Notes: generated by a model from the letters alone, not told the origin. A stretch of DNA of 43,559 bases from an uncultured Candidatus Saccharibacteria bacterium (GCA_964609785.1 CAZSSN010000001.1:1-43559), one strand, 5' to 3'. Counted from the stretch's first letter, positions 1,850 through 18,891 are shown. Translations and numbers: made by a program.

Positions 1850-1923
1850 TGGGGTATAGCCAAGCGGTAAGGCAAGCGGTTCTGGTCCGCTGATCCCAGG
1901 TTCGAATCCTGGTACCCCAGCCA
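1850..1923 (+). tRNA. tRNA-Gln (anticodon CUG), 74 nt with encoded CCA
   Basis: The cloverleaf is readable by eye. Acceptor TGGGGTA/TACCCCA; D-arm GCC-AAGCGGTAA-GGC; anticodon stem AGCGG/CCGCT with loop TTCTGGT; T-arm CCAGG-TTCGAAT-CCTGG; discriminator G plus CCA. The outline is very close to E. coli tRNA-Gln. Confidence 0.92.
1905..1923 (+). repeat. attL core: 19-bp direct repeat AATCCTGGTACCCCAGCCA (3' end of tRNA-Gln)
   Basis: An exact second copy lies at 18873..18891. Confidence 0.85.
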
Positions 1924-1952
1924 CCTCGTGCTAGCACGAGGAGCGTATAAGG

Positions 1953-1975
1953 ATCGCCGAAGAGGCGATTTTTTG
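1953..1975 (+). terminator. Rho-independent terminator after tRNA-Gln
   Basis: Hairpin ATCGCC-gaaga-GGCGAT followed by TTTTTT. An 18-nt perfect palindrome CCTCGTGCTAGCACGAGG lies just upstream at 1924..1941. Confidence 0.6.
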
Positions 1976-1982
1976 TTATTAT
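1974..1982 (+). promoter_or_regulatory. Extended -10 promoter (TGtTATTAT) 6 nt upstream of ATG 1989
   Basis: Read directly in the sequence. The spacing implies a leaderless transcript. Confidence 0.4.
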
Positions 1983-1988
1983 CAATAT

Positions 1989-2309
1989 ATGAATCAACTT
2001 CCAGAAAAAGGAACAAAAGAATACGCATTAGCAGATGTGCTTTCTAGACCCAATACAATCAATGGTTTGTATAGAAAACTAAAATTGCCTTTGGAATGGG
2101 AACATTTGAAGAAAAAAGATGCTGTCTACATAACACACCTCGCAGATTTGGCAGATAGGGCGATACAAGAAGCTATTGATAGTGGAAAAGATTTGGACAA
2201 CGATAAAGTTCAAGAAGAGTTGTCAGCTGCGGTATATGGAGGTGCGACAGGTGCTTATTTTGCAATGAGCTATTATAAATTTCTACGTTTTTTAGGTTTG
2301 CGTAAATAG
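1989..2309 (+). CDS. Hypothetical protein (island-borne)
   Basis: 106-aa ORF with no recognisable motif, followed by a terminator at 2346..2372. Confidence 0.5.
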   Translation: MNQLPEKGTKEYALADVLSRPNTINGLYRKLKLPLEWEHLKKKDAVYITHLADLADRAIQEAIDSGKDLDNDKVQEELSAAVYGGATGAYFAMSYYKFLRFLGLRK

Positions 2310-2345
2310 ATTTGACGGTTCTAGCCGAAAGTATGCTTAAAAGTC

Positions 2346-2372
2346 AAAAAAACGCCATCTGGGCGTTTTTTT
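2346..2372. terminator. Bidirectional rho-independent terminator between convergent genes
   Basis: AAAAAAACGCC-atctg-GGCGTTTTTTT: an A-run and a T-run flank a GC stem. Confidence 0.7.
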
Positions 2373-2441
2373 GTGTCTCTTTGACATATAAGAGCCTAAC
2401 CAAAATAGATTGACTGTAGTGTTAAAAAACCTTTCAAATTA

Positions 2442-16023: not shown

Positions 16024-16033
16024 TTTTTTAACA

Positions 16034-16441
16034 ATGAAACAATATAGTATATTTATTAGTCACTCATGGGCTTATGGTCACAATTATGACAACTTAATTA
16101 AGAAACTCAAATCTGACCCAAGATTTCATTTCAAGGATTACTCTGTCCCTAAAAATGATCCTATACATAATGCACCTAGTTCAATCCAGCTGTCTAACGC
16201 AATTAGAAATCAAATGCGATTTTGTGATGTTATAATTATTTTAGCGGGAGTTTACTCAACTTATAGTACTTGGATAAACAAGGAAATCGCTATTGCAAAA
16301 GGGTTCACAAATCCAAAGCCTATTTTAGCTATTGAACCTTGGGCTAGCGAAAGAACTTCAATAGTAGTTAAGAAGAGTGCTGACAAAATTGTAAAATGGA
16401 ACACTAGTTCGATTGTTTCTGGAATTTATGAATTAGCATAA
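16034..16441 (+). CDS. Minimal TIR-like protein (ThsB / DUF1863-type)
   Basis: 135 aa. YSIFISHSWAYG...DVIIILAG...STWINKEIAIAKG..KPILAI follows the flavodoxin-like TIR pattern with a candidate catalytic Glu in WINKEIAIA. The start at ATG 16034 avoids overlap with the upstream gene. Confidence 0.7.
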   Translation: MKQYSIFISHSWAYGHNYDNLIKKLKSDPRFHFKDYSVPKNDPIHNAPSSIQLSNAIRNQMRFCDVIIILAGVYSTYSTWINKEIAIAKGFTNPKPILAIEPWASERTSIVVKKSADKIVKWNTSSIVSGIYELA

Positions 16442-16444
16442 AAA

Positions 16445-16972
16445 ATGGAAAAAGAAGATGTTGAAAAAATGCTTTTTGTATCGACAGGAGAAAAGTACGG
16501 AGATAAATATGTTGAACATCTCCTAGATCAATACAAGATTTATATAAACGCGACAGAGAAGATTAGCGATCGAAGACAAAAAACTAATGAATTTTTTTTG
16601 GGTTTGAACACCGCTCTTGTGGCGTTGCTAGGTTTTGTCGCAACCAAAACTATTCAGTCAGAAATAAACTTAATATTAGGGTTGTCTTCTATTGCTGGAA
16701 TTACTGTATGCTATTTGTGGTATAGGATTATAGCGTCATATAAAGGATTAAACAGTGCGAAATTTAAGGTTATCCATGCAATTGAATCAAGATTACCATT
16801 GGCTTTGTATGATACCGAGTGGGAAATGCTAGGTCGAGGAAAAGATAAAACTAAGTATTGGCCGTTTAGTCATATAGAACTTTATGTACCTAAAATTTTT
16901 ATAATAATTTATACTTTTATTATTCTCTCGCTAGTACCATGGAAACTCATTCTGTTATTATTGCCTTGTTAA
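16445..16972 (+). CDS. Small 3-TM membrane protein (candidate pore-forming effector, SLATT-like organisation)
   Basis: 175 aa. A soluble N-terminal helix (..ISDRRQKTNEFF) is followed by two adjacent TM helices, an amphipathic segment and a C-terminal TM. It starts 3 nt after the TIR gene. Confidence 0.6.
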   Translation: MEKEDVEKMLFVSTGEKYGDKYVEHLLDQYKIYINATEKISDRRQKTNEFFLGLNTALVALLGFVATKTIQSEINLILGLSSIAGITVCYLWYRIIASYKGLNSAKFKVIHAIESRLPLALYDTEWEMLGRGKDKTKYWPFSHIELYVPKIFIIIYTFIILSLVPWKLILLLLPC

Positions 16973-16987
16973 TATGGAGTAGATCAG

Positions 16988-18076
16988 ATGAGTTATTTAA
17001 AATCTAAACAGTATTATATAGATCAATATGACCGTCACACAATTGAGGAGTGCAGGCGGATTTTATCTAATCCAGTTAGCCTTGAATCAATCAAGACAGA
17101 TTTGAAAGAAAAGAAGTTAGATGAGAAAGAGGGCCTAAGAGTGCTTGGTGCCGCACATAATTTATATATTTATTTCTACACGGGCGATCGCTATATCAAA
17201 AAAGAAGAAACAATCCGAGAATGGATGGCAACTGATGAGGCAAGAGATAAGTTTTATGAGGAAGCCATAGCTCCCGAAGATATCACTTGCTTCACTTGCG
17301 GAAGATTAATGTTTGTAAATTCCAAATATCTTAATATCAGTATCATTGACAAACCTGATACTGTTTTGTTTATGTATGATTGCCCATTAAAGCATCTGCC
17401 ACGCCGTGCTTTTTACGACAATGGCGAAGAGTTTAGGCGAGAGAAACCAACTTGCCCAAAGTGCAAAAATGAAGTTGAGGAAACTGAAAAAGTAACCAAA
17501 ACAAAAGCCACCACAATAATTAGCTGTACTAAATGTGATTACCGAGATAAGCAAGAATTTAATTTTTCAAAAAAGGAAAAGGAACCTGAAGTCGATCCAA
17601 ACTATGAGAAAGACCGAATAAAATTTTGCCTATCAGAAAAAGAGGGTCAAGAATTCATAAACTCACAGGAAAATATGAAGCAAATGGCTAGACTTGTTGA
17701 TGAAATGAAAGAACGAGAAGAAAATAAAGACAGTTATGATAAGGTATCTAAACTGAAAAAGTTTAAGATTATTGAGTTGGAAGAAATGCTTGTTCCTATC
17801 CTTGAAAAAGCAGGCTATATAAAATTACAATTTAAGGATCCTGATACTGCAAAAGATGTAATACTACCGTTTGTTGTATATGAACAAAAGGCAGATCGTG
17901 AAGACAGAGCAAGTATCTCGGATCTTGAAAAACTACTAAGGAAAACTCTAAAGGAAACTAACTGGCGTTTAATGACTGAAGGGGTGACTTACAGGCTAGG
18001 CATGCTTGAAGGTCGATTGCACGGATATGATCGCGAGGAAGATTTATTAAATTTAGTTAAACAAAATGAGAAATAA
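16988..18076 (+). CDS. Hypothetical protein with zinc-ribbon motifs and a charged coiled-coil C-terminal half
   Basis: CFTCGR...C and CPKCKN...CTKCDY motifs. It overlaps the next ORF by 11 nt. Confidence 0.65.
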   Translation: MSYLKSKQYYIDQYDRHTIEECRRILSNPVSLESIKTDLKEKKLDEKEGLRVLGAAHNLYIYFYTGDRYIKKEETIREWMATDEARDKFYEEAIAPEDITCFTCGRLMFVNSKYLNISIIDKPDTVLFMYDCPLKHLPRRAFYDNGEEFRREKPTCPKCKNEVEETEKVTKTKATTIISCTKCDYRDKQEFNFSKKEKEPEVDPNYEKDRIKFCLSEKEGQEFINSQENMKQMARLVDEMKEREENKDSYDKVSKLKKFKIIELEEMLVPILEKAGYIKLQFKDPDTAKDVILPFVVYEQKADREDRASISDLEKLLRKTLKETNWRLMTEGVTYRLGMLEGRLHGYDREEDLLNLVKQNEK

Positions 18077-18638
18077 TGCACACTTAGGAGAAACTAGAGA
18101 GCAAAGATTGGCGAGATTTACAGATAATAGCCCTTACGAGGTTATTGATACCATAACCAACTCAATGGCTAGCTTTTTTATAAATGAACTGCGTGCTGTT
18201 TTTGATAATATTAATAATTATCAAACTAGCTTAATGTTTTTAGGCACTCACTCAATTGCTCTTACAATTGCGTACGGATTTTTTAATAAACAGGGCGAAG
18301 TTGGATATAAGCTTTTTTTGGAAAATTTTATTGACGGTGATACTGAAGACACCAAGTTTTCTAAAGTGTCCTCTAGAATTCATGAATGGAGAAATGTTCT
18401 TGCTCATAGATGGATAAACACGGCTGGTCACAGTTTGAGCTACGACTTTGATATGGAAGAGGGCTGGAAAATTGATGGCGAATTTTTACTTATAAATCCT
18501 AAAATATATCTGAACCATTTTATTAAGGCTTTCGGGTCAGGTGGTAGTATATATGGCTATAACCAGATATTAACTACAGATGAAATGTTAGAATCAGCCA
18601 AGCAAAGGTTTATATCTAAATATGTTGATCCTGCCTAA
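18066..18638 (+). CDS. Hypothetical helical protein with a HEPN-like RNxxAH motif
   Basis: 190 aa. HEWRNVLAHRW (nt 18390..18407) fits the Rx4-6H HEPN RNase motif in the RNxxAH flavour. The assignment rests on this motif only. Confidence 0.45.
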   Translation: MRNNAHLGETREQRLARFTDNSPYEVIDTITNSMASFFINELRAVFDNINNYQTSLMFLGTHSIALTIAYGFFNKQGEVGYKLFLENFIDGDTEDTKFSKVSSRIHEWRNVLAHRWINTAGHSLSYDFDMEEGWKIDGEFLLINPKIYLNHFIKAFGSGGSIYGYNQILTTDEMLESAKQRFISKYVDPA

Positions 18639-18872
18639 ATGTTACATGATAGTGTAACTTTATATAGGGATTATGTGTCACTTTTGTAACTTTTCAAAGG
18701 TGCTCAGGGAGCGTCGATTCTGTTATAATGAAAATATTAAGAAAAGCCAAGCAGGGCTTGACTGAACCACGGTTCTAACTCGAGGAGCTCAGCCATGAGC
18801 GTGGTAATCTTGCATCGCAAGGTTGGCAGGCTCATGTTCGGCGCAGGATTTGAAGTTTATACCCGAAGGGTA

Positions 18873-18891
18873 AATCCTGGTACCCCAGCCA
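18873..18891 (+). repeat. attR core: second copy of AATCCTGGTACCCCAGCCA
   Basis: Exact 19-bp match to 1905..1923. No tRNA body lies upstream. It is followed by the terminator at 18897..18921. Confidence 0.85.

Follow-up and report, generated by a model that had tools for sequence, protein, structure and literature searches.

A Saccharibacteria tRNA-Gln locus holds an integrative island with a terminase module but no virion genes, a member of a widespread and possibly satellite-like family

What is a 17 kb insert that carries the packaging genes of a phage and none of the genes for a virion? This question is raised by a contig of an uncultured Candidatus Saccharibacteria bacterium (GCA_964609785.1, CAZSSN010000001.1:1-43559), here called the window, which is a complete NCBI contig of 43,559 bp and the sole contig of its source genome covered by our analysis. 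The insert lies in a tRNA-Gln gene, between two copies of a 19-bp sequence (1905-1923 and 18873-18891). The original prediction for this locus offered two explanations: a decaying prophage, or a satellite-like island that carries defence cargo and packages itself into the capsids of a helper. On balance we favour the second. We read the insert as an intact member of a widespread Patescibacteria integrative-island family, satellite-like and SOS-inducible, which would use its own terminase to enter capsids made by another phage. Most likely, the island is a parasite of phages and not a dead phage.

Genes of the element were called with Pfam, PHROG, PADLOC, Rfam and ARAGORN, and AlphaFold2 (AF2) models were made of the proteins o362 and o135. 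The family was scanned for in IMG/VR with TerL and the large serine recombinase (LSR), and in species-representative genomes with a TerL alignment. The first-round relatives are loci L001-L098; open reading frames (ORFs) were clustered across these 98 loci and the window, giving 99 sources. A second IMG/VR scan, with the TerL alignment as query, yielded further loci, among them L137-L139, L145, L148 and L149.

Packaging and integration genes without virion genes

The core of the element consists of the following features:

9875-11200, minus strand: LSR, the integrase (PF00239 4e-20, PF07508 6e-15, PF13408 7e-7; phrog_95 1e-61)
11272-12834, minus strand: TerL, probable start at 12780 (phrog_38 2.4e-78)
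12773-13276, minus strand: TerS, probable start at about 13189 (phrog_4044, phrog_4102)
13176-14459, minus strand: ParB-like domain fused to an N6/N4 DNA methyltransferase, ParB-MTase (PF01555 4e-29; phrog_498 1e-83; phrog_620 ParB-like 2e-21)
14627-15034, minus strand: o135, first gene of the core operon (ORF cluster 5)
15035-15121: divergent switch of 87 bp with back-to-back promoter-like sites
15122-15772, plus strand: LexA-like S24 repressor (Peptidase_S24 9e-20)

That is, the recombinase, the coupled packaging genes, the repressor with its divergent switch and the cargo named in the original prediction are all present. The LSR comprises all three of its domains (Resolvase, Recombinase and the Zn ribbon Zn_ribbon_recom), and reading frames overlap both between ParB-MTase and TerS and between TerS and TerL. 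In Pfam, TerL gave weak Terminase_6N/6C matches below the curated cut-off; its Walker A and B motifs (GSGKST, DDVED) and acidic nuclease residues are invariant in the family alignment. The leftward promoter of the switch reads TTGACA-16-TAAACT with a TG (15068-15041), and the sole AlpA-like signal was a sub-threshold helix-turn-helix (HTH) match within TerS. A host LexA (LexA_DNA_bind plus Peptidase_S24) is encoded 16 kb from the island repressor (31800-32423, plus strand); the SOS machinery that the island's switch would require is therefore present in the host.

Among the 18 ORFs between the 19-mer copies, PHROG, Pfam and structure-based searches identified no portal, capsid, tail, lysis or replication gene, as had been claimed from inspection of the sequence. 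The portal, major capsid, tail and lysis genes of a functional prophage (Caudoviricetes) are thus missing. Structural proteins might have been hidden among the unassigned ORFs, a possibility for which o135 and o362 had been singled out among others. Outside the operon of an Hsp70-like protein, o362 is the only unknown ORF big enough for a capsid protein. Its AF2 model (pLDDT 87) is composed of helices, zinc ribbons and a small alpha/beta domain, with no PDB match better than E = 0.03, and the model of o135 (pLDDT 84) matched nothing in PDB or BFVD. We rejected both as hidden structural proteins, since neither a capsid or portal fold nor any informative match emerged from profile searches against PDB sequences or from comparisons of the models with PDB and BFVD.

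A conserved family in Patescibacteria

TerL relatives amount to at least 476 matches in species-representative genomes, and the best 80, for which we examined taxonomy, are nearly all Patescibacteria metagenome-assembled genomes (MAGs). The core is shared by a large part of the 99 sources (TerL 92, ParB-MTase 90, TerS 90, LSR 77, S24 41, o135 34), the next commonest cluster being found in only 16; mapping of the window proteins detected TerS in 94 of the 98 first-round loci. Gene order is constant, with S24 on the opposite strand followed by o135, ParB-MTase, TerS, TerL, 0-8 kb of cargo and LSR. The core proteins TerL, TerS and LSR are 45-93% identical among relatives, and those elements that were measured span 12-18 kb. 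No head, tail, portal or replication cluster recurred in the 99 sources. Accessory clusters comprise type I and III restriction-modification, reverse transcriptases, TIR, a CBASS-like nucleotidyltransferase, caspase and thermonuclease, as well as a copper ATPase/CsoR/multicopper oxidase/DsbA group and an excisionase-type HTH; the family cargo is mostly defence or metal-resistance genes. An earlier description of such a family in Patescibacteria was not found in the literature searched, which is no proof of its being unpublished, and the family is apparently new.

Could this gene set be what chance has left of a prophage? TerS, TerL and ParB-MTase are clearly phage-derived, and an S24 repressor with a divergent switch is prophage-like. 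A sister TerL lineage even has portal and head genes right after TerL: in five loci whose TerL is 32-42% identical to that of the window (L137, L138, L145, L148, L149), a portal gene directly follows (phrog_2662/phrog_12, E down to 1e-121), and L145 and L149 have head genes too. Since PHROGs picks up portal and head genes in these sister phages, it would have picked them up in the island. The packaging module of the island likely descends from a phage lineage, with LSR now where the portal gene was. But the identical reduced architecture recurs in at least 476 matches at 45-93% identity with catalytic motifs intact, the measured elements of 12-18 kb have conserved cis ends, and partial head or tail remnants were found in no locus. 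A reduced gene set and invariant TerL motifs kept across hundreds of species are not the product of random decay. A prophage that by chance retained only packaging, integration and immunity genes is therefore the least likely of the explanations considered here, with hardly any chance of being correct. Of the two original alternatives it is the satellite-like island that stood, by its anatomy and by the defence cargo of its family; its packaging into helper capsids is what we infer.

Loci with a TerL at least 42% identical to that of the window nearly always have ParB-MTase and TerS, and mostly LSR. The exceptions are borderline (L137-L139, TerL 41-42%) and gave no TerS and LSR matches. Cultured phages are distant, with TerL identities of 25-28%.

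Two side observations concern the family as a whole. Seven loci (L017, L018, L117, L118, L119, L125, L140) have two tandem full-length TerL paralogues between TerS and LSR, each about 50% identical to the window TerL. In addition, many island contigs are binned as 'Saccharibacteria', and some (among L035, L040, L043, L056, L059, L071 and L084) as Bdellovibrionales, Gammaproteobacteria, Flavobacteriaceae or Methanoregula. Behind these odd bins lies either a mistake in binning or labelling, the mobile element having an atypical composition, or else a wider host range.

Insertion at the 3' end of tRNA genes

The features at the two ends of the insert are:

1850-1923, plus strand: tRNA-Gln(CTG), the integration target (ARAGORN; Rfam tRNA 60.3 bits); its last 19 nt are repeat copy 1
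1924-1973, plus strand: element-side junction, with the hairpin CCTCGTGCTAGCACGAGG (1924-1941) abutting the tRNA CCA end, then a terminator (1949-1973) (terminator scan, relatives)
18653-18795, plus strand: conserved terminal block, with three TGTMACTTT repeats (18653-18661, 18676-18694), an outward extended -10 box and a tRNA 3'-arm mimic
18721-18729: outward-facing extended -10 box, TGnTATAAT
18745-18795: tRNA 3'-arm mimic, ending CAGCCA
18796-18891, plus strand: 77-nt spacer and repeat copy 2 (18873-18891)

The 19-mer AATCCTGGTACCCCAGCCA was found exactly twice in the window with up to two mismatches allowed, and 0 times in 100 shuffles; the identity is confined to 19 bp and does not extend. 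As the original prediction had stated, no tRNA body precedes copy 2: tRNA-Gln(CTG) is the only tRNA that ARAGORN reports in the window, none lies ahead of the second copy, and a terminator-like hairpin follows it (18897-18917). We also rejected the idea that the 77-nt spacer before copy 2 is what remains of a tRNA-Gln, because it aligned with the 5' portion of such a tRNA not significantly better than shuffled sequence did (p = 0.11, 0.66). The island had been judged AT-rich by eye, and the numbers agree, with 35.4% GC versus 39.4% in the flanks (0.341-0.367 versus 0.384-0.405 in 5-kb windows, ranges that do not overlap) and a tetranucleotide L1 distance to the host of 0.17-0.21 versus 0.08-0.12 for host pieces.

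The predicted outer limits of the inserted DNA proved right as well. On the left, a flank 93% identical to that of the window (L099) loses homology exactly at 1923. On the right, host DNA restarts at 18892: in L107 the same lectin gene has an intact tRNA-Gln ahead of it, and both the trailer of this tRNA and the promoter region are homologous to the window's past 18892. In that locus the lectin gene is preceded by an intact tRNA-Gln(TTG), and a tRNA-Gln(CTG)/f94/f181/MnmA block lies inverted 6 kb from it (1-6620). The contigs of three relatives (L107, L019 at position 1, L106 at position 1) end at an island junction or where flank homology stops, or else no more than about 45 nt away, which suggests strain-level presence/absence or repeats there.

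Relatives use tRNA genes in the same manner: wherever a locus extends as far as a tRNA, it is the 3' end that the element adjoins. Many loci have such a gene (for Gln, Glu, Ser, Lys, Trp or Asp) just beyond LSR or its cargo, with its 3' end toward the element, and LSR homologues adjoin a tRNA 3' end in L003, L005, L016 and others. L020 holds a related 17.1 kb element in the same tRNA-Gln(CTG), together with homologues of the window's left-flank genes.

This mobility bears on another explanation, in which the unit is the regulatory and packaging half of a split system, domesticated or resembling a gene transfer agent (GTA), with capsid and tail genes elsewhere in the chromosome. No helper was identified, and only one 43.6 kb contig of the genome was covered, both of which favour it. 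But the unit is mobile and site-specific, occupies different tRNAs in different hosts and has a composition unlike that of its host, and more than one can occur per contig or genome (L112 and L124 on one IMG/VR contig; L035 and L040 from one MAG). Mobility and multiple copies are both un-GTA-like, and head-tail clusters are, as a rule, rare in the genomes of Patescibacteria, which are about 1 Mb in size. We give such a split system a slim chance.

The left junction is itself a family trait. At least 15 loci have the junction hairpin after Gln, Lys, Ser, Glu and Trp tRNAs, and it is the same whatever the tRNA, with the consensus CTCGTG-CTAG-CACGAG and compensatory changes (for instance CCTCGGGCTAGCCCGAGG in L100 and L107). 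Positions 1924-1973 probably serve as P' arm of attP and supply the tRNA with a new terminator in place of its own. A second junction motif, TTTAGTATCGTGGGCGACCGAGG-like, was observed after tRNA 3' ends in L099 (4728-4775), L013, L068, L093 and L020 (about 3300-3338 and 4380-4415). In L099, the 93%-identical relative of the window host, it follows the same tRNA-Gln. This motif points to a different type of element in competition for these tRNA sites, and to tandem arrangements that include relics.

The right end of the element

Does the element end at the second 19-mer, or before it? The terminal block at 18653-18795 is far better conserved than the proteins of the family. The near-invariant 20-mer GTGTCACTTTTGTCACTTTT of its three TGTMACTTT repeats (motif A) is present in 53 sources out of 99; TerL is always encoded on the other strand, and the related true phages lack the motif. 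Motif A lies in the arm on the repressor side, and three of the repeat-bounded elements have it 179-294 bp away from the flanking repeat. It could be a pac site, a set of iterons or an activator site. In most loci the block also has the outward -10 box and a segment of about 50 nt, ...CAGGGCTTGACCG..CACGGTTCTAAC.CGAG..., which in the window keeps the 25-nt spacing from GGTTC to the 3' end that a tRNA has. The last 4-7 nt of the block are those of the target tRNA (5.2 for the own tRNA versus 3.4 for cross pairs, with anchored terminal 12-mers). A 16-nt ungapped test of tRNA mimicry gave no discrimination; only the anchored terminal 12-mers gave a signal, so our claim of mimicry is a moderate one. 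An Rfam search of the right-end non-coding region returned nothing significant.

Homology among close relatives stops exactly at the end of the block (18795 in the window), in three independent groups (window/L019/L021/L043/L001/L020; L023/L025/L027; L029/L063/L033/L034), and the DNA beyond is unrelated and often opens with a terminator. Because of these breaks we set the canonical right end at 18795. The block (18653-18795) is probably the P arm of attP together with the true right end. The identity between attL and attR at this end is about 4-7 bp, with the core CAGCCA in the window. Short shared att cores are usual for serine recombinases, for which a 2-bp crossover suffices, and we take the 4-7 bp core at the junctions as a sign that LSR would recombine attP and attB at such a crossover. 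What lies at 18796-18891 was probably left behind by an element that had occupied this tRNA before; the alternative is that it is the present element's own attR. In L020, the stretch between block and repeat opens with the junction motif of the second element type, which makes it a tandem relic. The original view of copy 2 as the element's own displaced tRNA 3' end is thus probably wrong in detail, since family homology ends 78 bp before it.

The competing placement takes the 19-bp repeat as the element's own attL/attR duplication, with a crossover inside the tRNA, an element that restores the tRNA 3' end, and a block that is an internal small-RNA gene. In its favour, the repeat is exact (19/19) and directly precedes the native tRNA trailer, similar repeats are found 80-1100 bp past the block in L020, L025 and L096, L042 has a 17-bp repeat and no motif A, and a -10 box is part of the block, which in several relatives also comes with a terminator of its own. 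Against it, close relatives have nothing in common past the block end and several have no repeat there, the final nucleotides of the block track the target tRNA, a 2-bp crossover is enough for serine recombinases, and L020 has a tandem relic between block and repeat. We consider this placement unlikely, though it deserves to be kept in view. The two placements predict different empty sites: with the end at 18795, attB would be tRNA...CAGCCA joined to TGAGCGTGG, and with the 19-mer as att site, the tRNA would be joined to ATTTTAAAACCGCC. As a minor observation, L029 (4850-5040), L033, L034 and L063 have a conserved ORF of about 57 aa between TGTCACTTT repeats and the tRNA-mimic segment.

A model of transfer and its weak points

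How would such an island move? In our model, LSR recombines attP, made of the P arm (18745-18795) that imitates the T-arm and acceptor 3' strand of the target tRNA and of the P' hairpin (1924-1941), with a tRNA 3' end. With a crossover in the last few nucleotides, the tRNA would be kept intact and would gain the hairpin and terminator of the element. In the integrated state the LexA-like repressor would silence the leftward operon, while the morons (a LOOT-DUF4352 unit and a TIR/8xMP pair, both described below) would be transcribed from their own promoters. DNA damage or a helper phage would then derepress the operon, and the element would excise, perhaps with o135 as directionality factor. 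Its own TerS/TerL would recognise a site on the element, the best candidate being the triple TGTMACTTT repeat beside attP. Finally, the 17 kb DNA, methylated by ParB-MTase, would be loaded into procapsids of a co-resident phage of the related portal-bearing lineage.

Several points weigh against this model. We saw no helper phage or virion-derived read, and no attP junction was found. There were no circular or terminally redundant contigs among the 98 first-round loci, and an exact-pattern scan of metagenome contigs for an empty site, with tRNA-Gln joined to the 18892 flank, gave 0 matches. A search for empty sites via the flank proteins (MnmA and the lectin-like protein encoded from 18982) led to L099, L100, L106 and L107 only, each of which holds another insert at the tRNA or breaks at the junction; exact look-ups of window proteins matched no record. 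A headful terminase would be poorly served by a monomeric 17 kb circle with no replication module, and it would furthermore have to dock on a foreign portal; the element also has no gene for remodelling capsid size. An S24 repressor suggests self-induction, unlike the helper-triggered derepression typical of Staphylococcus aureus pathogenicity islands (SaPI) and other phage-inducible chromosomal islands (PICI). Excision and packaging are proposed steps, and the roles given to motif A and to o135, a candidate excision (directionality) or regulatory factor, are guesses. Patescibacteria phages are poorly known. Furthermore, TerL without capsid genes is found in none of four surveyed satellite families (PMC10085698).

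Some of these points would be met if the terminase module did not serve transfer at all, but acted against phages by competing for or blocking portals or by cutting phage DNA, within a defence island that spreads otherwise, for example by natural transformation. Defence systems dominate the cargo, replication and capsid-remodelling genes are missing, and phage infection would suffice, with no helper-mediated transfer required. On the other hand, TerS, TerL and ParB-MTase are co-conserved and translationally coupled, and together with the highly conserved terminal repeats they have the look of a cis packaging system. Moreover, near-identical cores occur over many phylum-level candidate Patescibacteria lineages, which implies efficient horizontal transfer. 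We give an anti-phage terminase a small chance and retain the satellite-like island as our preferred reading.

More tentatively, with doubts that slightly outweigh our belief, we propose that the islands are the first satellite family of Patescibacteria and follow a new strategy. They would combine a full terminase holoenzyme (TerS, TerL and ParB-methyltransferase), without capsid, portal or replication genes, with an SOS-switchable LexA-like repressor, a serine recombinase whose attP arm copies the T-arm, universal among tRNAs, and their acceptor end and so allows hops between tRNA species, and LOOT RNA as hallmark.

LOOT RNA as a hallmark of the islands

Between the LSR gene and the cargo, the window encodes a small unit on the minus strand:

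9012-9840, minus strand: LOOT unit (promoter, LOOT RNA, DUF4352 protein, terminator)
9840-9812, minus strand: promoter TTGATA-17-TATAAT, the best promoter match in the element
9796-9670, minus strand: LOOT RNA (Rfam RF03000, 80.7 bits versus a gathering score of 46.4, model positions 1-121)
9618-9043, minus strand: DUF4352 membrane-anchored protein
9040-9012, minus strand: strong terminator

A covariance model seeded with the window copy, folded as in Rfam, and refined by iteration (an earlier MAFFT-based model gave a poor structure) detected LOOT in 46 of 98 loci. In 31 loci it lies at most 300 bp from the LSR gene, either directly after that gene and co-oriented, the arrangement of the window (12), or just upstream and divergent (19). 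The structure is well supported: pairing holds in 95.6% of cells, compensatory changes occur at 34 of the 36 pairs, covariation backs the six helices, and the covariation score of 0.915 compares with 0.23 in shuffles and no more than 0.14 in slid controls. Promoter scores across the family average 8.6 versus 6.2 for controls. A co-oriented ORF starts 20-95 nt downstream of LOOT in about 35 of 47 cases; these ORFs mostly encode small single-pass membrane proteins with a variable ectodomain (DUF4352, the unannotated membrane-anchored cluster 7, or thermonuclease). Given its own promoter and the co-oriented ORF just downstream, LOOT looks like the promoter-proximal leader or RNA gene of a 'moron' unit and not like a free-standing small RNA. 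We tried LOOT as a guide RNA for the recombinase and rejected it, because the longest match to its own target tRNA (5-6 nt) was no better than for mismatched pairs. In Rfam and the literature searched, LOOT is a metagenomic small RNA without stated function or context, whereas here it is tied to one mobile-element family, of which we regard it as a hallmark. Together with the terminal block and the junction hairpin, it adds to what the original prediction had recognised.

Comparison with known elements and significance

Temperate phages with large serine integrases (phiC31, Bxb1, SPbeta) are complete phages whose attB is usually in protein-coding genes; their recombinases have Resolvase, Recombinase and Zn-ribbon domains, use a short crossover core and need a separate directionality factor for excision. 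The island LSR has the same domains, but its attB is a tRNA 3' end and its attP has a tRNA-arm mimic.

PICI and SaPI are likewise site-specific islands of about 10-17 kb in which a repressor controls an operon; they too have a TerS of their own, carry accessory defence genes and lack genes for tail and lysis. The element departs from them in its integrase (an LSR, where theirs is a tyrosine integrase), its regulator (an S24/LexA-type repressor, where theirs is Stl/AlpA/MerR), the lack of a primase-replicase (no primase, helicase or Rep match in the element or in recurrent clusters), the full TerL beside TerS, the lack of a detected capsid-morphogenesis homologue, and its Patescibacteria hosts. 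Capsid-forming PICI (cfPICI) are a satellite type with both TerS and TerL, but they are defined by capsid and head-tail adaptor/connector genes plus a serine-protease head module, none of which is present in the island or its family (definitions of PICI and cfPICI from PMC10085698). As we read it, the island is satellite-like in its working, yet outside both definitions. Tycheposons and other tRNA-targeting marine cargo islands integrate in tRNA genes and have modular cargo and partial tRNA relics, with some PICI-like members that carry a packaging gene (10.1101/2020.12.28.424599). Compared by description only, they share tRNA integration, modular cargo and tRNA relics with our island; they differ in that almost all have tyrosine recombinases, many have replication genes, and none is described with a ParB-MTase/TerS/TerL core.

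Patescibacteria account for a large share of bacterial diversity, yet little is known of their phages and mobile elements. A family of islands that is present in hundreds of their species and carries genes for defence and metal resistance would be a major route by which genes move between these tiny genomes. If the islands are satellites, they extend satellites to a new super-phylum, with a strategy (own full terminase, no other virion part) outside the four families of current detection tools. Furthermore, the tRNA-mimicking attP arm suggests how a serine integrase family can retarget among tRNA genes, which is relevant to integrase engineering, and the orphan LOOT RNA is given a genomic home and a testable role.

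Cargo genes of the island

The remaining genes lie at the two sides of the core:

1989-2309, plus strand: o106, small cargo protein, no Pfam or PHROG match
2442-3518, minus strand: AAA+ ATPase, IetA-like (Pfam AAA 2e-37; PADLOC IetA 3e-30)
3518-4213, minus strand: o231
4216-5856, minus strand: 546-aa protein
5859-8366, minus strand: 835-aa Hsp70-like protein (HSP70 9e-78)
8376-8888, minus strand: GrpE-like protein (GrpE 2e-5)
15778-16023, plus strand: DUF2188 protein (Pfam)
15947-16441, plus strand: ThsB-like TIR protein (PF08937 4e-16; PADLOC ThsB 6e-9)
16445-16972, plus strand: 8xMP membrane protein (Pfam)
16988-18076, plus strand: o362, Zn-ribbon protein
18066-18638, plus strand: o190

The cargo operon 2442-8888 is absent from L001-L098 and is not a PADLOC system; it could be an undescribed defence or stress module. 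Its products include a coiled-coil membrane protein, and the N-terminus of its 546-aa protein is J-domain-like by eye, with no Pfam match. On the other side of the core, the ThsB-like TIR recalls Thoeris, but its neighbour is 8xMP and not a ThsA (SIR2 or Macro/SLOG) effector, so the pair falls outside the Thoeris definition. In the stretch 15778-16972, with the PADLOC candidate PDC-S16, DUF2188 comes ahead of the TIR and the octameric membrane protein 8xMP, and the TIR/8xMP pair also occurs in L003 (3666-4533) with 73-82% identity.

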